In this document: positions 4,601 to 51,307 of the stretch, in pieces | Position numbering within the stretch: the first letter of the stretch is position 1 | How the letters are laid out: the number at the start of each line of letters is the position of its first letter | Translations under genes and position numbers: made by a program | NCBI GenBank assembly: GCA_000165345.1 | Contig: CM000432.1 | Location: 160,001 to 224,000 of the forward strand | DNA length: 64,000 nucleotides | Reading direction: 5' to 3' | Notes under the pieces: model-generated | The model's database searches: none | What the model saw: the letters and a program-made list of their open reading frames with translations, nothing else | Told to the model about the DNA's origin: nothing

Positions 4601-7600
4601 ATGGTCTTTAAGATTATAAAATATATTTCTACAATACTAATATTTATTATTTTCGGAGCAGAATCTAACATTCAAAATGATATTGAAAATAATGATTTAA
4701 TTACTATTAACACACATTTGCGTAATGAAATTTCAGTTTTTGAACTTATAAAGTTTGAGAATCAAAGATTCATACCAAAAAATGTGAATGTAGAATTTTA
4801 CTGGGACAAATTCCAAGTCAATGATATATATAAACGAGTATGTTATTTTTATAGTCCTAAAAATACCACAAAAACTCCAAAAAATCAACATGAAAACAAT
4901 TACTCATATTCAATTGGAGGATTTAATCTGTTTCAAACAGCATTTTCAAGAGAACCTAATAGTTTAAAAGAGGTAGATATTAGAATGTTGGAAATAAGTA
5001 AAACATTGCTTCGATTCTTTGATTATGAGTACGATTTATCTCGTCCAACAAATGATTCAAGTGCTGATATAAATATTTGGAGACATATTCGCTATAATAA
5101 GATGAAATTGAGTAATTTAATAATACCAGGAAGAGGTTCTAGTAGGCTTTATATTAAGACTGAAACTAACTTAGCATATATAGGTAACTATTTTGGATAT
5201 TTAAAAGTTAAATATGAAGATGAAGTTGAATTAAAAGCTGTAAAATTATCAATTAGTCCATCTCCTTTAAATCTGTTTATTTTAAAAGAAAACCAAGTAT
5301 TTGAAGAATCCAATAATAAAGTAATAGTTATCGACTTTGTATTAAGAAATCATCTAGTTTTCAGAAATTTGAATACTTTTTTTCAACCTAAACTTGAAGG
5401 CTTTAATGAAAACTTATGTAAAATAAAAAATATACTTCAAAAAGAATCTCAAATAATAGAAATTAGACCAGGAGGACTAGAGAAGATTCAGATAATTTGC
5501 TCTATTGGAAGATTGAAACCAGAATTAATTAAAGATCTCTTACTAATTCAAATTAATAGTTTTTGGAGCAGTTCCAGTAGATATAAAACAACTTATAAAT
5601 ATAGTGAAATAGTGAGACATGAAAGAAAATTTAATAGAGGATTATTTTTATCTGAATTTATAATGGACTATCCAATTTCTTCAGAATTTTTTAACTTTAA
5701 GATTGTTGGACAAAGAGAATATTCAATAAATTATTTAAAAGAAAATGAGACAGGAATAATTAACTTTTATAATCCATTTAAAACAGATTTTCTTTCTTCA
5801 CAATATTGGATAAGTTTGGATTTGCTTCAAATATCTGAAAAGGTACTAAACTTAAGATATATTAAAATAATAATTGAAGTTGATAGTAAATTATCAGATT
5901 TCCTATATGTTACTTTTGATAATAATATTAGAGAAAAATTCTATGAACTAGATTCAATTACTGAAATGAATTCCCTTCTATTCTTAAAAATTAATTTGGG
6001 CTTTAACCCACAGACTTTAATTGATCAAGTATTTGTTACAAATGATAGGGAAAGTATGAAATTAAAAATTCCTATCAAAGTAAAGTTATTTGAGAATCAT
6101 AAAGATATTTCTAATGACACAAATATTTTTGAAAGGATCTGGATCTTTAATTTTGATTTAGAGAGTGAAGCTGATGAATATATTATTAAAAATAATTTAC
6201 TTGAAAACAAGATTAGACAACCCAGATTAATTGTGAGAGATTTGGATGAAAATATAAGTCTGAACATTTTAAAAATCAAGAACTCAAAGGCAAAAGATTC
6301 TGAAGAAGTAGAAATAAACTTTTTAGAGAATAAAGAAAATAATTTTGGTCTAATTTCAAAAGTTTCAGTTCTTACAATGAAAAATTATGATATTGGCCAA
6401 TTAACACTAAATTTTAAAAAACTAATAAATAGAAAAATATTCGAAATAAAGCAAAATAACTCGGCTATCAATAACTCAATAGAAGATTTACCATATTTTA
6501 TAGAGATAGGAAAAAATAAAAGGCTACAATTAGCTACAATAGCTAGTTGCGGTATAGTTGAATTAAACAAAAATGAAATAGATTTTGGAATAGTACCAGT
6601 AAGTTTATTTGGGAACCCAAAATTAATTCAAAAAATAGAGATGAAATTAAGAAGATTTGAAGCAGGAAGAAAATGTGGTAAAAAATTTTCAGTTGGGTTT
6701 AGCGTTTCAATCAATTTCAACTTAAGAGTTACATGGAAAAAAAATCTTTATCCTTCAAGTAGCACTAGAATAATAAAAATCAACAAAAAAGATATAAAAT
6801 TAATTAAAGAATATATTTATGATTTTTATATTGAAGATTCTGAAGTATTTTTACTTATTGTTGAACCTGATTTTAACAGTCCAGTAAATGTAGAACACAA
6901 ACAATCTACAGACATCTCAACTCAATTAGAGGTTTATATTCCTGCAACGATGAAAAAGTATTATAATAATGAACTAAGAGATACAAGTGAGAAATTAAAT
7001 CTGAAAAATGAATTCTTAACACGTAATTTATTTTTCAGCCAGTTTGTCAAAATTGCATGTATTATTAGGGGTTTACACATTTCGGCGGGAACCCCACAAA
7101 TTAGAAATGCATTGCATAGTGAAATTATGTCACAAGAATTAGTCAAAAGTGGTAAATTACCAATAAGTTTATTTTTTATAGAAATTAAAAATGAGGAGGA
7201 TTTTCCTGTTCAATATTCACTCCAACGAGATTTTAGACTTGAGAATAAAGAAAGAGAGATAAATAAATATTTTACGGAAAACTATACATTTTACATTTCT
7301 TATGAAAAAAATGCAAATAATAAATCAGAAGAATTAATAAATAAGTTTGAAGAACAGTTTAATATTGTTGAAAATAAAACTTTCTCAGAACTTATCAGCA
7401 AGGAGAGTGAGCTATTTGATAATTTGGCATTTAATTTTCCTTTTAAAAGTTTATATTTAATGAATGCAATAATAATTCTAAAGTTTGGGTTGGTTTGCAT
7501 TTTTAATGGAGAAGTTTTTACCTATCAAAACTCTTTTTGTGTTAAGTTATTACCCACTGAAATTGCTGAAAGCGTTGGGAATTTAAAAATATCATTTGGG

Positions 7601-10600
7601 CATATAAGAATGAATATTTGGCAAGTATTAATCAGATTTCGTTTGGAAAATAGTAATACTGAATTATTGACAGGACTAAAATTCTACGAGACTGGGAGAT
7701 TAGATTGGAAATTTTACAATTTTGGTAATTTTCCACTTGACCTAGAGATTTTTGAAAAGTTTGTTCCTGTTATTTTTTCAAACCAAAATCTGGACTCAGC
7801 ATTTAAGCTGAAGGAAACGATAGAGCTTGGAAAGATTGAGAAGATAATCCGTATTTCAGCAGTTCCTTGGCTTGAGGTTTCTAGTGAAATCCCAAGAACA
7901 GGCTATTTACTTCCAAAGGAAAATAGATTAATAACCATTTTGGTTCACAATCAAATTCTTACTTCAACTTCAATAAATTCAAAGTTTAAAGAGTTAAAAT
8001 GTAGTTATGACTTAGTATTCAAGGGATTGACAGATATTGGAGAAACTCTAGATATATCTGATGATCCATTTTCGAGAATGCTATTGGAAAACGACCATGA
8101 ATTAAGACAGGAAAGTAATGGAATGAAATCATTATTTTCACTAGATTGGAAAATCCCAAATGTAGTGAATGATTTGGGATATGGAGGAGGATTTGTTAAG
8201 AAAATTACTCTTATCAATTCACCTACATCTAAAATAGAAGGGAATCATTCCGTATTAGAATATATACAATTTATCGTGGAGATCCAAAATCCAATTATAT
8301 GCACTAAAAAAGAAAGAAAGACTTATACAGATGAAGATGAATCAGATTCTTTTAGCAGTGATGAAAATGATCAACAAATTGAAGATGTTTACACTGATAG
8401 AACTAATACATCTGAAGATAATTTTTGTACTCCATTTAATAATATTGAAGTTGTAAAAGGGTTTAGAATTATTTGGTATCCTTATAACAACTTTAGTCCA
8501 ACTAATTATAAAAGTCTTGAGATTTTAATTAAAGATGTTCCAAAGTTTGATTTCAAAACAAGTTCCTATAGTTTTGAAAGTGATAAACAAGAGGAATCAG
8601 AGGAGAATTCAGAAATTTCTCGAATTTTTACTAACTACATAAAAGAAACAGATTCTCAAGACTCTGAATATGCTTATTTGCTTAAAATCAAATATGACTT
8701 TGTATTAAACCAACAATATACATTCAAGTTTGCTATTACTCATCATGATAATATCAAAAATAGTGTATTTATTCCACCTTTTGGATTCAATGTTACAGCT
8801 CAAAATCATTCACTAAGATGGTTAAAATCTCTAAATTCTGTTGAAAATGGCATTTCTCAAAGTTCTATTCTTAAAAACTTTACAAAGAGAATATGTAAGG
8901 GGAATGTTAACGTTTTCTCTGATAATTCAATGATTTTGAACTGGGACAAAGAATTTCTGAAAATTATTAATACTTTTTCAATAAGTTATTTAGAGTCGGA
9001 CACTATTGAGCAGGTAGAGGAAGAAGAATGGCAAGTAAAAGAGCTTTTCTTTGATTTAATAGATAATGAAGAACATTCTCCAAATAACAAGAAATTATTA
9101 TTCATAAGAAATTCCTATAAAACTGATGGAATCGCAAAATTCTTTTCTGAAGATATTAATAATGGAACTAGTTTATTTGTTAAGATTCAAGATCTTCCAT
9201 CTAGTTTGAGAATAAAAATTCTAGTTGAAATCCAAGATAATAACTCTGAGAAATTCCAATGTATTTCAAAAACTTTTCAAACAAATGATGGAGTTCCAAA
9301 TGAACCAAGAGATTTTCAATTCATTCCTTTGACTATCAATTCTCTTAAATTGAGTTGGAACACACCCAAATCTCATGGGGGTTCGGAGATATTTGATTAT
9401 TTGATCAATTTATCTCCAGAATTGGTTGCCAGTCCCAATGAGTTTAAAATTGAAAACATTTCAATTATCAGTGATAAGTTGATGATTATTTCAGATCAAA
9501 TTTATCCTTTTGTATCTTATAAAGCAATAGTTCAGGCAAGAAATAAGTTTGGGATTGGAAAACCGTCTATTATTCATCATATATCATCTCGAGGAGTGAA
9601 TTCTTGTATTAGTACTGGGACTTATAAATTAGTAATAAATGAAAATTCAACGCGTCAAATAACCTGGAAAGTTGAAAATCAAGAAAATATTGATTTAAAA
9701 TCTGTATTAATTTATCTTTATTGCAACAAAAGAGGTAATTTCAAGAATCAATTCTTAATAGAATTATTGAAAGCTTCAAATATCTGTAATTTTTATTTTG
9801 GTAAAGTTATTTGTACTTGGATAGAAAATAAAGAATACATTTTGGATTTAAGATGTGATAGTTATTCATTCAAAATGATTAACAAGACAGATAAATTTGT
9901 GAATGGAGATTTTTCTTGTATTGGTGAATTTGGTACACAAAAACTTCGAAAACTAAAAGGAGAATCTAATAATAACATAAACTTGGATCATAAGATTAAA
10001 GTGTATCATATAAATTCAATAGATGAGCTTAATGATATTAAACAGAAAAGGGAGAAATTGTATTACCCAAGAGGATATAATCCAGAATGGGATAACGGGT
10101 TAACTAAAACAATTTTGAAGATGGATATTATGGGTCAAAATACCAGTTTAATTGAAATTGAAGTCAATTATCTTCATGAGACAGAAAACATGAATGAAAT
10201 TATATTAAATGGGACAGTAGAGAATGTTTTCCACAATAAATACTATTATGATTTAAAACAAGTAAAAAGAATGAAAAGTTCAACAAGTATGAAGAATTGG
10301 AGTATATTTGAAGAAAGGAATCATTTAGATATCAATAACCATAAATTAGGGCAAGAAGAACAAATTGAATTGGTGATATTAAATTTGATTCCAGAAATGA
10401 CAATATTGATTTCAATTAGGGAATTGAATGGAAATAATGAAGAGGTTTCTATTTCAAGACATGTTTTGAGAATTCCAAATAAAACGAAGAAAATTGAATT
10501 ATTAAATAGAAAATTATTAAGCTTAGGAATACTCAAGGTTCAATTAGATGACCATTTTATTACTCAAGGGGAATTTTCTGGTAAAAGGAGTGGAAATGGA

Positions 10601-11893
10601 AATAACTTAAGAAATTTGAATGAAGAGGAACATGTTGATGAAAATCAATTAATATTGAAAATGGAAGCTGATATGGACTCTATTGGTAGCAACTTATCAA
10701 ACTCATTGTTCGTTTCAAGTAAAATGTTGATTGATGGTTGGCCTGAAGACTTTGAGAGAAGACTATTTGGAGAAATGGGGATAAATATTAACTCGGGACA
10801 TTTAAGATTTAAGAATGATACCAAGGAAATTAGTGGGAATGTTGAGAATTACAAACCAATTTCTGAGTTAGAGAATGATAAAAAAGGAAAATCTGATGAA
10901 GGAATTCAGAATCTATTTGATGCAGATTTGGAAACAGGAGTAGACTTTTATAATAACAATTATACTGGTAAAGAAACTTTGGGGATTGAGAATGAGATTT
11001 ATGAAGAACATTTCCCACATATTACCTTAAGCTTTAATCCTCCAATTTGTATTTTATATGCAAAATTATATTGGAAAGAAAATAAGTCTCCAGTATCTAC
11101 AATAGTATCTGTTAGATTAAGATCTAGAAATGTCTCAAAGCCCAGAATAAGAAATTTCAACCCAGTTGTTCATGAATGTTTTGGAAATCAAAAATCTGTA
11201 AATGAAAGTTATACTCAGGATAGAATTGACACAATTCAAATTATCCCTCCTGAGGAGATGGTAAACACATACCTTGGGAATCCATCGAACAGGTACCCTT
11301 ATATTTACAATTTTACCTTATCTTTTGCAGGTTCTTGTGGTGATTCAAGATTTATAGAAAGAAAAGACGAAGCTGCGCTATCATTAAAGGAAATTGAACT
11401 AATTCCATGCATTTCTAATGATTTAGTACTTTCTTACTCAGATCCTTTATCGGAAACCAATATATCTCTTGTTAATACAGAACATCTTCTAAAGAAGTCT
11501 CGGTTAAGAGAAAAATACTTGGAAATACAAAAGATTATTCTAGATAATCTTAGAAAAGATATAGAAAAGAATACTACCAACTTAAACTTAAGTAATATTT
11601 CTGTCAAATATAAGAAACCATTAAACGAAACTAATGTATACTTGGATCTTAATACAGTCTTATCAGAGGAATCAAAGTTAAGATCGTCGCATATTCCAAG
11701 CGTAAGGTTGCTAATTCAGGAAAATAGAAAGGAAATAAAATATTCAAGGAAATCTAGAAATCACAGAAGATTATTAGAGGATGATGCAGGGAAAAATTGG
11801 AGTCTTCTTTTTGCCTATGCTTTGCATTTATGGCTTAATCTAACAATAATATGGGTTTGGAACTTAATATATTTCTTAAAAAAGTTCAATTAA
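4601..11893 (+). CDS. Very large (2430 aa) predicted type-I membrane protein with an FN3-like domain; function unknown
   Basis: It is one uninterrupted ORF with an ATG start. There is an N-terminal hydrophobic signal-like segment (ILIFIIFGAESNIQ) and a single C-terminal transmembrane segment (LLFAYALHLWLNLTIIWVWNLIYFL) with only a 4-aa tail. A fibronectin-III-like segment lies around aa ~1560-1660 (PNEPRDFQFIPLTINSLKLSWNTPKSHGGSEIFDYLINL...YKAIVQARNKFGIGKPS). Confidence 0.6.
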   Translation: MVFKIIKYISTILIFIIFGAESNIQNDIENNDLITINTHLRNEISVFELIKFENQRFIPKNVNVEFYWDKFQVNDIYKRVCYFYSPKNTTKTPKNQHENNYSYSIGGFNLFQTAFSREPNSLKEVDIRMLEISKTLLRFFDYEYDLSRPTNDSSADINIWRHIRYNKMKLSNLIIPGRGSSRLYIKTETNLAYIGNYFGYLKVKYEDEVELKAVKLSISPSPLNLFILKENQVFEESNNKVIVIDFVLRNHLVFRNLNTFFQPKLEGFNENLCKIKNILQKESQIIEIRPGGLEKIQIICSIGRLKPELIKDLLLIQINSFWSSSSRYKTTYKYSEIVRHERKFNRGLFLSEFIMDYPISSEFFNFKIVGQREYSINYLKENETGIINFYNPFKTDFLSSQYWISLDLLQISEKVLNLRYIKIIIEVDSKLSDFLYVTFDNNIREKFYELDSITEMNSLLFLKINLGFNPQTLIDQVFVTNDRESMKLKIPIKVKLFENHKDISNDTNIFERIWIFNFDLESEADEYIIKNNLLENKIRQPRLIVRDLDENISLNILKIKNSKAKDSEEVEINFLENKENNFGLISKVSVLTMKNYDIGQLTLNFKKLINRKIFEIKQNNSAINNSIEDLPYFIEIGKNKRLQLATIASCGIVELNKNEIDFGIVPVSLFGNPKLIQKIEMKLRRFEAGRKCGKKFSVGFSVSINFNLRVTWKKNLYPSSSTRIIKINKKDIKLIKEYIYDFYIEDSEVFLLIVEPDFNSPVNVEHKQSTDISTQLEVYIPATMKKYYNNELRDTSEKLNLKNEFLTRNLFFSQFVKIACIIRGLHISAGTPQIRNALHSEIMSQELVKSGKLPISLFFIEIKNEEDFPVQYSLQRDFRLENKEREINKYFTENYTFYISYEKNANNKSEELINKFEEQFNIVENKTFSELISKESELFDNLAFNFPFKSLYLMNAIIILKFGLVCIFNGEVFTYQNSFCVKLLPTEIAESVGNLKISFGHIRMNIWQVLIRFRLENSNTELLTGLKFYETGRLDWKFYNFGNFPLDLEIFEKFVPVIFSNQNLDSAFKLKETIELGKIEKIIRISAVPWLEVSSEIPRTGYLLPKENRLITILVHNQILTSTSINSKFKELKCSYDLVFKGLTDIGETLDISDDPFSRMLLENDHELRQESNGMKSLFSLDWKIPNVVNDLGYGGGFVKKITLINSPTSKIEGNHSVLEYIQFIVEIQNPIICTKKERKTYTDEDESDSFSSDENDQQIEDVYTDRTNTSEDNFCTPFNNIEVVKGFRIIWYPYNNFSPTNYKSLEILIKDVPKFDFKTSSYSFESDKQEESEENSEISRIFTNYIKETDSQDSEYAYLLKIKYDFVLNQQYTFKFAITHHDNIKNSVFIPPFGFNVTAQNHSLRWLKSLNSVENGISQSSILKNFTKRICKGNVNVFSDNSMILNWDKEFLKIINTFSISYLESDTIEQVEEEEWQVKELFFDLIDNEEHSPNNKKLLFIRNSYKTDGIAKFFSEDINNGTSLFVKIQDLPSSLRIKILVEIQDNNSEKFQCISKTFQTNDGVPNEPRDFQFIPLTINSLKLSWNTPKSHGGSEIFDYLINLSPELVASPNEFKIENISIISDKLMIISDQIYPFVSYKAIVQARNKFGIGKPSIIHHISSRGVNSCISTGTYKLVINENSTRQITWKVENQENIDLKSVLIYLYCNKRGNFKNQFLIELLKASNICNFYFGKVICTWIENKEYILDLRCDSYSFKMINKTDKFVNGDFSCIGEFGTQKLRKLKGESNNNINLDHKIKVYHINSIDELNDIKQKREKLYYPRGYNPEWDNGLTKTILKMDIMGQNTSLIEIEVNYLHETENMNEIILNGTVENVFHNKYYYDLKQVKRMKSSTSMKNWSIFEERNHLDINNHKLGQEEQIELVILNLIPEMTILISIRELNGNNEEVSISRHVLRIPNKTKKIELLNRKLLSLGILKVQLDDHFITQGEFSGKRSGNGNNLRNLNEEEHVDENQLILKMEADMDSIGSNLSNSLFVSSKMLIDGWPEDFERRLFGEMGININSGHLRFKNDTKEISGNVENYKPISELENDKKGKSDEGIQNLFDADLETGVDFYNNNYTGKETLGIENEIYEEHFPHITLSFNPPICILYAKLYWKENKSPVSTIVSVRLRSRNVSKPRIRNFNPVVHECFGNQKSVNESYTQDRIDTIQIIPPEEMVNTYLGNPSNRYPYIYNFTLSFAGSCGDSRFIERKDEAALSLKEIELIPCISNDLVLSYSDPLSETNISLVNTEHLLKKSRLREKYLEIQKIILDNLRKDIEKNTTNLNLSNISVKYKKPLNETNVYLDLNTVLSEESKLRSSHIPSVRLLIQENRKEIKYSRKSRNHRRLLEDDAGKNWSLLFAYALHLWLNLTIIWVWNLIYFLKKFN

Positions 11894-22255: not shown

Positions 22256-22781
22256 AGAAAATAGAAATTTTACACCATTTATTATTATTCTACATTACGA
22301 ATTTTATTTGTTCTATTAATATTCTCTATTACGTGGCAGGCCATACATGCAAAATGTCATGCATGTATTTAGCGCGGATTCGAGCCTATATGTGTACTTA
22401 AATTTTCAATAGTAAGAATGGTGTATATTATTTAAAAAAAAAAAAAGGGAGAATAGATTTACAAACAAAACAATAAAAGTATTAGACAATTATTTATGCC
22501 AAATCAGAAATCCGGGTTTTAGCCACTTTTGTTCTAGGGTTAAATAATTTTTAGCAACAATATAATAATCCATAGTATGATTATTGTGAGTATTCATATT
22601 TGCATGTTCCTTTAAATATTTATTACATTTTCCTTTATCAACATAGAATTTATATTTCGAAAAGTATTGCATTCTACAACCCTTTAAAAGCGAGTATCCT
22701 AATATCCAATTTTTCCTTCCACCTTTCTTTCTTACCTTTCTTTCCCTATTAGATTGGAATGCACAATGCAATTCCAAATGC

Positions 22782-35768: not shown

Positions 35769-36770
35769 TTAATTTCTTTTAAAAGATTTTGCATTACTCA
35801 TGTTTCCAAATAAGTTCTTTTTATTGCTACGATTACTGATTTTATTAGATCTGTCATCTTCACTATCTGAATCAGTATCGCTATTACTTTCACTACTACT
35901 TTCTGATTCACTATCAGATTCGTCTTCATCTACATTAAGGATATCACCTTCGTCATCTTCTTCAAGTTCGTCATCTTCATCAACAGCTTCACCAGTAAAC
36001 CAATATAGAGAGTATGGAATCAATTTATCCCTAATAAAGATTCCCATTTCATAATCAGTTTCTACAGTGGATTCAAGTTCCATAATATCGAAACGATCCA
36101 TTTTTGCAAGTTCTTCGTCAGAAGGAACATTTAAAGATTTAAAGAAATTAAAGAAGCTTTCTCTATGGACAGTTTCTGTCACAATACGAACTTCTTTGGA
36201 TTGTTTATGTCTTTGCCTTCTGACAACAACCTCTTGAGTAGGGTCTCTTCCTTGCTTCCATTCAATTTTGCTTACAACAGTATTGCTTAATAATGGCTCA
36301 TCGTCTTCTAAGAAAACCATAACATATTCTTTTTTAATATTTGTGCCTTCAAAGAAGGGATTTGGAGCAAAGTTGAAATTAAGAATAAAACCAGATTGTT
36401 GCTCTGAAGTCCATTCCGAGGTAATATTCTTAAGATATGAAAGAATAGGAATGTCATACTCTTCAATGGCTGACCCTAGCATTCTGCTGTTCCTCATTGC
36501 AGTAATCCAAAATTGAGGTAGTCCAGGAGTTCCAGATTCTTCAACAGTGCCTGATTCCAAAATTTGATCTCTTTTACTATAAATTTCGTTATACTGAGCT
36601 TCAAATTTTGAACGGAGTTTTCGCATTTCTGCCAAGTATTCCTTTTCTATCAAGTTAAATTCAATCTGCAAATCTTTAAGTTTTTTGAGAGATTGCCTGC
36701 TCTCATCAGATAAATGTTGTTCGAACTCGTCGATTTCTTCTATCTTGTCTCCAGAAGTGTTAGTATTCAT
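35769..36770 (-). CDS. Nucleosome assembly protein (NAP1 family) with acidic C-terminal tail
   Basis: It has the NAP fold signature (QYNEIYSKRDQI...GLPQFWITAMRNS...ILSYLKNITSEW...FNFAPNPFFEGTNIKKEY) and an acidic Asp/Glu/Ser-rich C-terminus. The start is an ATG. Confidence 0.8.
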   Translation of the reverse strand: MNTNTSGDKIEEIDEFEQHLSDESRQSLKKLKDLQIEFNLIEKEYLAEMRKLRSKFEAQYNEIYSKRDQILESGTVEESGTPGLPQFWITAMRNSRMLGSAIEEYDIPILSYLKNITSEWTSEQQSGFILNFNFAPNPFFEGTNIKKEYVMVFLEDDEPLLSNTVVSKIEWKQGRDPTQEVVVRRQRHKQSKEVRIVTETVHRESFFNFFKSLNVPSDEELAKMDRFDIMELESTVETDYEMGIFIRDKLIPYSLYWFTGEAVDEDDELEEDDEGDILNVDEDESDSESESSSESNSDTDSDSEDDRSNKISNRSNKKNLFGNMSNAKSFKRN

Positions 36771-37483
36771 CTTAACTTTTTTATAGGCACTAGAAATTTG
36801 AATTAAATGAAGCTATTCTTGACGACAGAATAACGATTTTGTAAATTTTGACATTAATTTATAGCTCTGTTTTCATGGCGGGAAAATCCATTAGGTTTAA
36901 CTTAACTAACATTTTATAAGCCATTATCATTCAGGTAGTTTATAGCTTTATGACTAGACAATAAATTATTATGATTTTTTTAATGTTAGAAAATAAGTGT
37001 TGAATTAAACTACAAAAGTAATGAATTTTAGTGCTTTTGAACTTAAAATACATCTGTTGGTCTTCTTAAGAATTGATTTTAATTATAAATTTTTTTTAAA
37101 GTATTGCTACATTCAAAATTAATAATTATTGAATCTTTTTTTTCATAAAATGTTTACTTACGTGTCATGTGTTTGTTGTTTTTTTAATTAATAAGTAAAT
37201 TGCATGTAACACCGGTATAGTAATGTTTCTTAATTTTGTCCACATGCAAATATTTATGAATGAATAAAAAAATATAAAGGTACACACATAGTCAAAGTAT
37301 GAACTAAAAAAAAAAATCAATTAATTAAATAATTTAAAAATTTGTTCAAACAAGGAGACTAAGAGAGAATATTAATATACAAAACATAGAGCATTTATTC
37401 AAATTTAAAATAATTGCGTTTTGCAATACAAGATAAATGAAATTAGAATAGAAAATCACAAAAAAGGTGAATAATTAATAAAA

Positions 37484-39538
37484 ATGACTCATTACGACAA
37501 AAATAGCGATTTTATTGAAGATAATATTTTTGGAATCTTGAATAATGAGCAGGATTCAATTGAAAATTTAAAGAAAGGTGAGTAGAAGTAATTAATGCAA
37601 ATTTGATGATTAATAGCAAAGTATTTAGCAAATCTAATATATGAAGAAATTAATCAAAAAATTACCAATGAGAGAGAAAATACAATAGATATTAAAGTAA
37701 GTAAAAACAATCTAAAAATCATTTTGTTTATCATAAGTAATATGATGAGCATGATTAAAATAAAAATATTGGTATATTAATTTCTTGATAATTTATTATG
37801 AAATAGAACCAGTTAGAATCACTAATACAAATAATTGACCATGTAAAAGAAATGGAGGACCAAATCATGGAATATTTGAAATCGCAAAAAGTTGTTAAAG
37901 AAAAGGCAAGAGTTGAAATGGACAATAAATATAAAGAATCGCTTGAGGAAAAGAATATAGAGAGGAAGAAAGCAGAGGAAGAATTGGGTAGGATAATAGA
38001 TCAAATTAAAGAGAAGAATGGAGAATTAAGTAAGATGGACATTATGATAAAGGATGTATCTAAGGATAATGATTCAATTTTAAAGGTATGTTTAAAAGAA
38101 TTTAATAATGCTTATAACTATCAACTTGTTAATAAAATATAAAATAGTCAATTGAGAGTTGGAATGAAAAGAAAAATCAATGGAGAAGAGTAATTGATGA
38201 GCAAGAAAAAAAAAAGGAACAACTTTCAGATTTGAGTAGCTATTTATCCGAGAGATTCAAAAATTTGAATGATGAGTATAATCAAATTCTTCAGGAGAAG
38301 AAGGGTTTAATTGCTTCAAAAGATAATTTAGAGATTTTGATTGAAAAGTCAAAAAAAGAAGGAGAAGAGAAAATGAGAGAATTATATAAAGTGGATAAGG
38401 AAATAAAAGATGAATTAGAGGAAAAGGTGAATGAAAATAATAATATTTCAGCAGAAATATCGAAATTGAAAGAGAATAATGAAACAAATGAGAAAAAAAA
38501 AGTTTCTATTGAGGAAGAAATCGTTAAATTAGAAAATGATTTAATTTTAAAAGCAGATGAAATTAAGTTAAGTAAGGAGGATTTATTGAGAATTAGTGAT
38601 GAGTTGGATAAAAAAAAGCTAGAAACATCCAAATTTATACAGGAGTTGGTTGAAAATAAAAGATGTTTGGATGAAATTAATGAATTAAATATACTCTTAG
38701 AAAGCAAAAGAGAGAAATTGAGACAAATGGATGCAAAGAGTGAATCTAGTAATAGTTATTACAATATAATTGAGTTGGAGCATATCAATGAAGCTAATAA
38801 CCTACTTGAGCATGAGATTTTGTCATTGAATTCAAAAATAAAACAAGATGAGAAGGTTTTAATTGATGAGATTTCTAAATTAAAAGAATCGAAAGTGCTT
38901 GTTTCAGCTGAAGATATTGAAAAATCATTAACAGAATTGGAGATGGAATTAGCTGAAGACAAATTGGATAAGATTTCATTAATTGAGAATTTTGATCAAG
39001 ATGAAACAAAAATGGATGATATATTAAACCAAATTTCTAAAATACGTCAATTATTGAATGAACAAGAAAATGATAACAATAATAATGAAGAAGAAATTTC
39101 GATTAAGAAAAGAAAGGGAAAATTAAAAAGGAGCAAAGCAAAGAATACTCAATCTATGGAACATGTTTTAATACAGTCATTAAGAATGATACAAAAAATA
39201 GATCAATTTAGAGTAGGATCAATTAATCAAAGTTCAGATATCAAAGAGACTCAGAAGATAAATAACATTATTACAACCGAAAATGATAATAATCGAATAG
39301 TGAAGCCTCTTGAAAGTCCAAAGAGTGGGGTATCCGGCCTTGGAAGAAGAGTAATGATTTCTAATAGAAGACTGCTAACACCAAGAAAGGTAAGTTAATA
39401 AGAAAAAAAAAGATAAATTACAAAAATTTAACACTACATTAACAACTCCAGGGTTTATTTGCACCTATTCCACAATCTAGTCGCCACAGAGGATCTAGAT
39501 GTGGAGACGACGATACTCTATTTGGATCTGATTTATAA
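37484..39538 (+). CDS. Coiled-coil protein, 5 exons (~594 aa), function unknown
   Basis: Exon 1 (37484..37577) starts at ATG and ends at a GTGAGT donor. Exon 2 (37617..37696) ends at a GTAAGT donor. Exon 3 (37807..38085) ends at a GTATGT donor. Exon 4 (38148..39389) ends at a GTAAGT donor. Exon 5 (39452..39538) ends at TAA. All acceptors are ...TAG/CAG and every junction preserves an open frame. The ORF track shows only fragments (37852..38142 and 38232..39398, the latter with a TTG pseudo-start). The protein is K/E-rich with heptad-like coiled-coil composition. Confidence 0.5.
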
Positions 39539-39596
39539 CTACATAAAAAAAGTCAGATTAAAAAAAAATTTGGTTCATTTGAAAAATTAAATCATT

Positions 39597-40187
39597 CTAA
39601 AATGAGTCCTTAAGATAACTGGAAACACCTTCATGAGTAGCTGACATTCCTTTTTGGCCCTTCTTCCAGTTTGCTGGGCAAACTTCACCATAGGTTTCAG
39701 TGAATTGAAGTGCATCAATAACACGTAGAGTTTCTTCGACTGATCTTCCTAATGGTAAGTCATAGATTACTTCAGAACGAACAACACCCTCCTTGTCAAT
39801 GATGAATAAACCTCTGAGAGCAATACCTTCTTCCTCGAGAAGTACACCATAGTTCTTGCTAATTGAATGAGATGAGTCAGAGATAAGTGGGAAATTGACT
39901 GGTCCAATTCCACCTTGTTCAAGAGGAGTACGTCTCCATGCAGCATGGGAGTATTGAGAATCAACTGAGACAGCGAGGAGCTGTACTCCCAATTTCTCAA
40001 AGTCTTTTTGTGCTTGATTGAATGCTAAGATTTCAGATGGACATACAAATGTGAAGTTTAATGGATAGAAGAACAATACAACGTATTTTCCTCTGTAGTC
40101 GCTCAAGGAGACCTTCTTGAATGAACCATCTGCCATAACAGCTTCAGCAGTAAAGTTTGGTGCTAACTTTCTAACTAATGTACTCAT
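39597..40187 (-). CDS. Typical 2-Cys peroxiredoxin (thioredoxin peroxidase)
   Basis: The peroxidatic Cys motif FYPLNFTFVCPSEILAF and the resolving Cys context GEVCPANWKKG are both present. The protein is 196 aa with an ATG start. Confidence 0.9.
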   Translation of the reverse strand: MSTLVRKLAPNFTAEAVMADGSFKKVSLSDYRGKYVVLFFYPLNFTFVCPSEILAFNQAQKDFEKLGVQLLAVSVDSQYSHAAWRRTPLEQGGIGPVNFPLISDSSHSISKNYGVLLEEEGIALRGLFIIDKEGVVRSEVIYDLPLGRSVEETLRVIDALQFTETYGEVCPANWKKGQKGMSATHEGVSSYLKDSF

Positions 40188-46723: not shown

Positions 46724-51043
<4,320 letters not shown>

Positions 51044-51295
51044 TATTAGCTCTATATATAATACTCGAATTTCAGTATCAAAGTAATACTTTAATTTATA
51101 TTTATAAAACTATTATTCATTCTTTTTTTTTTTTTTTTTTTTTTTAAATAAATTAATTCCCATTTTAATAAATATTTTATTCCCCACTTATTTATATATA
51201 TAATATAAATTATTTACACGTAATTATTATTTAAATGACGTGGGTTAATACCGCCAAAATATTTTATATTATTTCTTGTGGACTGAAAAAGTATT

Positions 51296-51307
51296 TGCAT
51301 GCATGCA
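51296..51307. promoter_or_regulatory. Palindromic TGCATGCATGCA (GCATGC-type) motif upstream of TOP2
   Basis: tgcatgcatgca sits ~530 bp upstream of the TOP2 ATG. Related TGCATGCA/CATGCAT elements occur at 4291-4297, 18141-18149, 22345-22365, 25748-25766, 32604-32613 and 60211-60218. This is over-represented for a ~30% GC sequence. Confidence 0.45.

Follow-up and report, generated by a model that had tools for sequence, protein, structure and literature searches.

The Cryptosporidium parvum locus cgd4_730 as a probable single five-exon gene encoding a coiled-coil protein with a conserved C-terminal module

How many genes lie between positions 37,484 and 39,538 of a 64,000-nucleotide (nt) stretch of Cryptosporidium parvum chromosome 4 (GenBank assembly GCA_000165345.1, contig CM000432.1, positions 160,001 to 224,000; hereafter the window, G+C = 29.8%), and what do they encode? 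A mechanical list of open reading frames (ORFs) gives only two entries on the + strand of this region, 37852-38142 (96 amino acids (aa), ATG start) and 38232-39398 (388 aa, TTG start). A first-pass annotation, made from the letters alone, had proposed one five-exon gene for a coiled-coil protein of about 594 aa. The analysis reported here makes it highly probable (about 0.85) that 37484-39538 (+) is a single five-exon protein-coding gene, cgd4_730 (cpbgf_400730 / CPATCC_0017850), with a product of 589 aa. Its parts, in positions of the window, are the following.

37484-37577, + strand: exon 1, 94 nt; opens with the ATG at 37484 and closes in phase 1; a TAA lies in frame 12 nt before the ATG
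37578-37628, + strand: intron 1 with corrected 3' end, 51 nt; GTGAGT...TTTAG, branch-like TTAAT at 37610-14
37629-37696, + strand: exon 2, corrected, 68 nt; begun at 37617 in the earlier reading
37697-37806, + strand: intron 2, 110 nt; GTAAGT...AATAG
37807-38085, + strand: exon 3, 279 nt; the 96-aa ORF fragment begins at its internal ATG, 37852
38086-38147, + strand: intron 3, 62 nt; GTATGT...AATAG
38148-39389, + strand: exon 4, 1242 nt; encodes most of the coiled coil and ends in phase 0 directly after the NRRLLTPRK codons (39363-39389)
39390-39451, + strand: intron 4, 62 nt, phase 0; GTAAGT...TCCAG
39452-39538, + strand: exon 5, 87 nt including the stop codon TAA at 39536-38; encodes GLFAPIPQSSRHRGSRCGDDDTLFGSDL

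Each of the four introns has a GT donor and an AG acceptor, and the reading frame is restored only once they are removed. Three of them have lengths that are not multiples of three, and retention of introns 1, 2, 3 and 4 would lead to a stop after 2, 27, 18 and 2 codons, respectively. Most of the first-pass gene model was borne out by these data: exon 1 of 94 nt with its ATG and GTGAGT donor, the donors GTGAGT, GTAAGT, GTATGT and GTAAGT with AG at every acceptor, and the preservation of the frame, since the exons as originally drawn (94, 80, 279, 1242 and 87 nt) sum to 1782 nt and stay open up to the stop at 39536-38. Seven of the eight splice sites were correct; the intron-1 acceptor had most likely been placed 12 nt too early (exon 2 from 37617 in place of 37629). 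The original exons give 593 aa and a stop, close to the announced size, and the corrected model is shorter by the four residues KYLA.

The comparison of exon and intron positions with orthologues, which the first-pass annotation had recommended, was carried out over 12 lineages: C. parvum and 11 syntenic loci from C. hominis, C. meleagridis, chipmunk genotype I, C. ubiquitum, C. canis, the Logan assemblies L007 and L008, C. felis, C. ryanae, C. bovis and C. andersoni. The splice search bounded exon lengths only loosely (45-110 nt for exon 2) and scored the models against a related protein. The four introns occupy the same positions throughout the 12 lineages, including the deep-branching C. 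andersoni. Under these loose bounds exon 2 was recovered with 68 nt and exon 3 with 279 nt in every lineage, and exon 5 measures 87 nt throughout except in C. andersoni (81 nt). Exon-1 lengths of 94, 88, 82, 79 and 118 nt differ by multiples of three only, a constraint that does not hold for the introns, whose lengths range over 46-79, 47-131, 52-115 and 53-90 nt for introns 1 to 4. Intron 4 has a GTAAGT donor and a YAG acceptor in 12 of 12 lineages and is otherwise poorly conserved in sequence; in comparisons with most of the more distant species, identity is higher in the exons than in the introns. This indicates, as far as alignment of the genomic sequences can tell, one five-exon structure for the whole genus.

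Substitution patterns carry the same signature of a translated product. Counted by codon position 1/2/3, the differences from C. parvum are 9/8/29 in C. hominis, 61/52/149 in chipmunk genotype I and 142/141/311 in C. canis. Exons 1 and 2 taken alone give 1/0/6, 2/0/8, 6/5/17 and 9/7/18 for the four closest species, the last being C. ubiquitum, and all 12 lineages have kept the N-terminal peptide encoded by exon 1. Conservation is highest in exon 5, with 76-98% nucleotide identity to the eight lineages compared; against C. felis its substitutions are distributed 4/2/20 and 25 of its 28 aa are identical. The orthologues in L007 and L008 (SRR31861040, SRR31860986) are 57-59% identical to that of C. 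parvum and closest to that of C. canis. For the pair C. parvum and C. hominis, a ratio of nonsynonymous to synonymous substitution rates (dN/dS) of 0.38 has been reported for cgd4_730, compared with 0-0.15 for the immediate neighbours cgd4_700-760 (Isaza et al., 2015), which marks it as a comparatively fast-evolving gene.

These observations decide between one gene and two or more separate short genes. The fragments 37852-38142 and 38232-39398 are the only long ORFs on the + strand of the region, and fragments of this kind are reported by prokaryote-style gene callers on the Logan assemblies (P0014, P0015, P0020-22). The 388-aa ORF, however, begins at a TTG that lies inside exon 4 and is internal, as had been stated at the outset; the reading frames join exactly across GT-AG introns conserved in 12 lineages; and exons 1, 2 and 5, which fall outside both ORFs, are conserved at the protein level with a bias of substitutions towards third positions. 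The reference annotations likewise give one gene, and the reading as separate genes is effectively refuted.

A protein search returned only Cryptosporidium proteins, and its top matches, at 99%, were cpbgf_400730 and CPATCC_0017850, both C. parvum entries named "uncharacterized protein". With exon 2 starting at 37629, the spliced translation equals cpbgf_400730 (C. parvum BGF) over 589 of 589 residues and CPATCC_0017850 (C. parvum IOWA-ATCC) over 588 of 589, the sole difference being M436I. The gene cgd4_730 and its five-exon structure are thus already present in current reference annotations and are not new. All introns of the IOWA-ATCC annotation are stated to be supported by RNA-seq (100%), and cgd4_730 is not one of the three putative alternatively spliced genes listed in that study (Baptista et al., 2022; PMC8744675). 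Introns occur in about 11% of C. parvum genes, and these genes have 2.6 exons on average (Isaza et al., 2015). Mechanical ORF tracks break up such intron-bearing genes; a reading from sequence could nevertheless rebuild cgd4_730 almost exactly.

The one splice site that had to be revised is the acceptor of intron 1. Four candidate AGs end at 37616, 37621, 37628 and 37646; three of them are in frame, and the one at 37620-21 breaks the frame and would lead to a stop. Every species of the DNA alignment, and all 12 lineages compared, have the AG at 37627-28, whereas the AG at 37615-16 occurs in the DNA alignment only in C. parvum, C. hominis and C. meleagridis. The junction peptide reads ...ENLKK-ANLIYEE... 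in the 589-aa models and ...ENLKK-AKYLANLIYEE... in the earlier reading. According to that earlier model, the main isoform would use 37615-16, with exon 2 at 37617-37696 and a 593-aa product containing ENLKKAKYLANLIYEE. Such an acceptor exists, keeps the frame and leaves it open, and the same in-frame alternative is found in C. hominis and C. meleagridis; it is also the first AG after an upstream TTAAT at 37592-96 and could be selected if that TTAAT were the branch point. Several lines of evidence speak against it. Chipmunk genotype I, C. ubiquitum, C. canis and C. ryanae either lack this AG or have it at a shifted position, and the 12 nt that separate it from the AG at 37627-28 show no conservation as coding sequence: C. 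ubiquitum has different letters there, and C. canis has a deletion. It sits only 2 nt past the conserved branch-like TTAAT at 37610-14, and an AG so near a branch point is normally unusable by the spliceosome. Intron 1 would measure only 39 nt, compared with 46-131 nt for all other introns of cgd4_730, and an 80-nt exon 2 would be contrary to the 68 nt found in 12 of 12 lineages. The acceptor at 37628 is also the one chosen in the two evidence-based annotations of C. parvum. The 593-aa form is therefore quite improbable as the main isoform, and the comparative alignment makes the AG at 37627-28, with exon 2 at 37629-37696, the most likely choice. Minor use of the upstream AG may occur in C. 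parvum, C. hominis and C. meleagridis.

Further exon combinations are found among the deposited orthologue models, which disagree with one another: 589, 583, 563 and 520 aa, as well as 550-558 aa where the last exon is lacking. A main isoform of 583 aa (acceptor 37646), 563 aa (exon 2 skipped and a later exon-3 acceptor used) or 520 aa (Met at 37852, exons 1 and 2 untranslated) would match models deposited for C. parvum HLJ and CDC, C. hominis, C. tyzzeri, C. ubiquitum and C. meleagridis, and the AG at 37645-46 is indeed in frame and open. All of these are nonetheless very improbable, because the peptide at the start of exon 2, ANLIYEEINQ..., is conserved from C. parvum to C. ryanae and C. bovis, the third-position bias of exons 1 and 2 argues against their being untranslated, and the whole 68-nt exon 2 can be recovered from the DNA of C. 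ubiquitum and C. hominis.

The 589-aa, five-exon model can in turn be used to revisit the public records. Exon 2 or exon 3 is skipped or truncated in models from C. ubiquitum (exon intact in DNA at L003 1645-1712), C. hominis (L006 1646-1713) and C. felis (L010 1861-2139), and likewise in C. tyzzeri and in some C. hominis and C. parvum strain models. The last exon is intact but unannotated in C. ryanae (L001 4897-4983), C. bovis (L011 3400-3486) and C. andersoni (L009 4947-5027), whose models end at ...TPRK-VS or similar because intron 4 was read through. A by-product of this work is hence a genus-wide consensus structure for cgd4_730 that corrects several public models: exons 1-3 should be added or repaired in those of C. 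hominis (583 and 520 aa), C. tyzzeri, C. ubiquitum and C. felis and in the older one of C. meleagridis, and the last exon, coding for the best-conserved part of the protein, should be added in those of C. ryanae, C. bovis and C. andersoni.

What kind of protein does this gene encode? The first-pass annotation had described it as almost entirely a lysine- and glutamate-rich coiled coil with a short C-terminal exon set apart by an intron, and both parts of this description hold. The 589 residues comprise 14.4% E, 13.4% K, 10.7% I and 10.4% L, and the first proline appears at residue 534. Hydrophobic periodicity at 3.5 residues reaches 0.525, compared with 0.220 +/- 0.035 in shuffled sequences (about 8.7 standard deviations). 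AlphaFold2, run on an eight-sequence alignment, predicts helices at residues 8-195, 207-344, 350-394, 401-425, 436-455 and 482-503, and disorder over 504-589, where the predicted local distance difference test (pLDDT) score lies below 40. Long helices, the 3.5-residue periodicity and the lack of helix breakers are the features of a coiled coil. The protein is laid out as a heptad-periodic helical rod at about 8-455 with a conserved break near residue 200, a basic cluster at 467-477, an amphipathic helix at 482-503, a disordered linker and a conserved tail. Two short elements of the C-terminal part can be placed on the DNA as follows.

39105-39137, + strand: codons of the basic cluster KKRKGKLKRSK (residues 467-477), resembling a nuclear localization signal (NLS)
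39503-39535, + strand: codons of the terminal GDDDTLFGSDL, within exon 5

Conservation along the protein is uneven. In blocks of 20 residues, the stretch 541-589 has a mean column identity of 0.83-0.98 across the 12 lineages, and the rest of the protein one of 0.43-0.82. The next most conserved blocks are residues 181-220 at the first helix break (0.80-0.82) and the helix 481-500 (0.78), and the least conserved is the linker 501-540 (0.43-0.53). The tail reads ...ESPKSG.VSG.GRRVMISNRRLLTPRK / GLFAPIPQSSRHRGSRCGDDDTLFGSDL, where the slash marks intron 4, and ...NNNRRLLTPTK / ...RCDDDILFGSVL in C. andersoni. A basic stretch, ...GRRVMISNRRLLTPRK-GLFAPIPQSSRHRGSRC, precedes the acidic-hydrophobic end GDDDTLFGSDL-COOH: residues 546-578 contain nine basic and no acidic residues, and the last 11 residues four acidic and no basic ones. 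Both NRRLLTP and DDDxLFGSxL-COOH are invariant in 12 of 12 lineages, as is RRLLTP[RT]K, and 11 of 12 have an [S/T]-P site further upstream (SPKS in C. parvum, TP in C. bovis). The basic cluster occurs in all 12 lineages with conserved composition, is weakest in C. andersoni and fits the K-K/R-x-K/R pattern of an NLS; its residues G471, L473, R475 and K477 are invariant in the eight-species alignment. The most conserved part of this orphan protein is accordingly a 45-residue C-terminal module that is split by a conserved phase-0 intron.

Searches for relatives outside the genus gave no family assignment. In Pfam, nothing scored above the curated cut-offs for the 593-aa product as first drawn or for 14 orthologue sequences (the eight-member alignment and six more); the best match, ADIP with 16.9 bits against a cut-off of 34.3, came from C. 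canis only, fell in a variable region and was dismissed as coiled-coil noise. PDB sequence searches with a full-length profile, a C-terminal profile and the 44-aa tail returned only noise at E >= 0.2 (a seryl-tRNA synthetase arm, NAB1), and a Foldseek comparison of the AlphaFold2 model with the PDB had a best E-value of 4.6. An HMMER profile search of 1.84 billion representative proteins yielded 10 matches, eight of them Cryptosporidium proteins or fragments, and added C. bovis, C. felis and C. andersoni (E = 5e-34); the remaining two, P0023 and P0024, are unrelated repeat or coiled-coil proteins and spurious. Judged by sequence similarity at the sensitivity of this profile search, the cgd4_730 family is confined to Cryptosporidium.

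Can a function be proposed for such a protein? The rod sequence drifts while the small tail stays almost constant, a layout like that of a scaffold with a terminal docking peptide, and our best guess is a coiled-coil rod that would dock a partner via a phospho-regulated C-terminal peptide. The rod would probably dimerise as a coiled coil and act as a spacer or scaffold, the basic cluster 467-477 would probably direct nuclear import, and the invariant C-terminal peptide would probably dock a conserved partner. Docking, in turn, would probably be gated by proline-directed phosphorylation of the cyclin-dependent kinase (CDK) or CRK type at T558 (TPRK, beside the RxL-like RRLL) and at S537 (SPKS), and RRLL may itself be a cyclin-type docking element. 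A hint towards sexual differentiation or cell division is given by the response to S-1255, which accelerates macrogamont differentiation and induces DMC1: cgd4_730 is among the 448 genes up-regulated by S-1255, a set enriched for coiled-coil proteins, kinases and mismatch repair (PMC11078545). The gene has also been assigned to mRNA co-expression cluster 3 (Li et al., 2021). It is possible, if doubtful, that NRRLLTP(R/T)K together with ...DDDxLFGSxL-COOH forms an undescribed docking motif that ties the rod to a conserved machine of cell division or the sexual stages, such as a cyclin-CRK complex, a spindle pole or kinetochore, or the meiotic chromosome axis. If this were true, cgd4_730 would be a lineage-specific structural component of nuclear division or gamont development.

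Known systems offer partial parallels. Golgins (GM130-GRASP65) and spindle-pole or kinetochore rods are long coiled-coil adaptors and tethers that work by way of a short terminal docking peptide, and the fast-evolving heptad rod and strongly constrained terminal peptide of cgd4_730 have the same layout. They have no sequence or fold relationship to cgd4_730, and the resemblance is one of architecture only. Cyclin-docking RxL/Cy peptides are exemplified by RRLFG of p21 and p107. In cgd4_730, NRRLLTPRK joins an RxL-like RRLL with the full-consensus CDK site TPRK, and LFG follows later in the tail; the combination is invariant in the genus (TPTK in C. andersoni). It differs from the cyclin-docking peptides in that the putative RxL overlaps the phospho-acceptor and does not lie downstream of it.

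Several points weigh against the docking proposal. The NLS, CDK-site and RxL readings are pattern matches at the sequence level. The single-chain predicted template modelling (pTM) score of the AlphaFold2 model is 0.23, and helix packing is therefore uninformative. The motif TGCATGYR, found upstream of the gene, was considered as a stage marker for cgd4_730 and rejected, since it is about 9-fold enriched throughout the window. Within the portion available to us, the female-versus-asexual differential-expression lists of Tandel et al. (2019) do not contain cgd4_730, although they contain cgd4_710, 720, 740 and 750. The accessible part of the supplements of the AP2-F paper did not contain it either, and a search of the available literature found no main-text mention of cgd4_730 or CPATCC_0017850.

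The same architecture would be expected of a cytoplasmic tether, golgin-like or cytoskeletal, in which S-x-L-COOH would be a class I PDZ-type ligand, as in GM130-GRASP65, and the basic cluster would bind membrane or microtubules and not importin. The last three residues, S-D-L (S-V-L in C. andersoni), do fit [S/T]-x-hydrophobic-COOH, and a rod with a terminal peptide is generally regarded as typical of golgins. GRIP, GRAB, transmembrane and other Golgi-targeting signatures are nevertheless missing from the product, as is any Pfam match, and conservation spans about 45 residues, including the proline-directed sites, and not just the last four. We regard a tether of this kind as unlikely.

A divergent DNA-end resection cofactor of the CtIP/Sae2/Ctp1 type was also considered. 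These proteins share with the C. parvum product a coiled coil at the N-terminus, disorder in the middle and a short conserved C-terminus that carries a CDK site and RHR; TPRK is followed by SRHRGS near the C-terminus of the C. parvum protein, and the enrichment of mismatch repair genes in the S-1255-induced set (PMC11078545) would be in line with such a role. Pfam SAE2 (PF08573), however, was matched by none of the 14 orthologue sequences even at E <= 1-10, and RHR is not conserved in the genus: C. felis has RQR, C. ryanae and C. bovis have RHK, and C. andersoni lacks the motif. The motif order also appears to be unlike that of CtIP. With the SAE2 domain missing and RHR not conserved, a CtIP/Sae2 identity of cgd4_730 was rejected, and a divergent member of this group is hardly credible. 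A genus-restricted orphan with a strongly constrained C-terminal peptide is a reasonable, if not urgent, candidate for tagging in C. parvum.

The region upstream of cgd4_730 contains short conserved elements that may take part in its transcription.

37158-37167, + strand: conserved footprint TTACGTGTCA, a candidate promoter element some 320 nt ahead of the ATG; 8 of 9 aligned intergenic regions have kept it, and it is the only exact copy in the window
37201-08, + strand, and 37241-48, - strand: inverted TGCATG(T/C)(G/A) pair, TGCATGTA and TGCATGTG, candidate AP2-type elements; both copies conserved across the aligned species

TGCATG(T/C)(G/A) is reported to be enriched in promoters of macrogamont genes and bound by the AP2 proteins cgd2_3490 and cgd1_3520 (PMC11078545). 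The window holds 25 copies of TGCATGYR where 2.9 would be expected, mostly in intergenic positions. At 37158-37248, 22329-22367, 51214-51307 and 7017-7061, one or two TGCATG(T/C)(G/A) copies come within 15-90 nt after a TTACGTG-type element, and this recurring arrangement suggests a composite promoter module. The motif pair at 7017/7054 falls inside a long ORF, 4601-11893.

On either side, cgd4_730 is flanked by genes of recognizable families.

35769-36770, - strand: nucleosome assembly protein (NAP) gene; Pfam NAP, E = 3e-61
39597-40187, - strand: 2-Cys peroxiredoxin gene; Pfam AhpC-TSA, E = 5e-41

The order NAP (-), cgd4_730 (+), peroxiredoxin (-) is common to most of the 11 other syntenic loci. 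The exceptions are C. andersoni and C. felis, with an upstream gene for which no NAP match is recorded, and the short contig L007, which has no neighbour annotation. An E2F-like GGCGGGAAA at 36877-36885 is located in the divergent intergenic region shared by cgd4_730 and NAP, about 107 nt from the start codon of NAP. Most of the aligned Cryptosporidium species have kept it, and it probably serves the NAP gene. On the other side, only 58 nt lie between the stop codon of cgd4_730 (+) and that of the peroxiredoxin gene (-) (39538-39597), so that the convergent 3' untranslated regions must be very short or overlapping.

Further downstream, a 1439-aa ORF at 46724-51043 (+) contains about 53 tandem copies of the 24-nt GAGGAAGAGAGACTTAGAAAAGAA, which encodes the octapeptide EEERLRKE, at 48911-50193. 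The strong purine and GC skew observed at 48-50 kb is due to these tandem GAGGAAGAGAGACTTAGAAAAGAA repeats.

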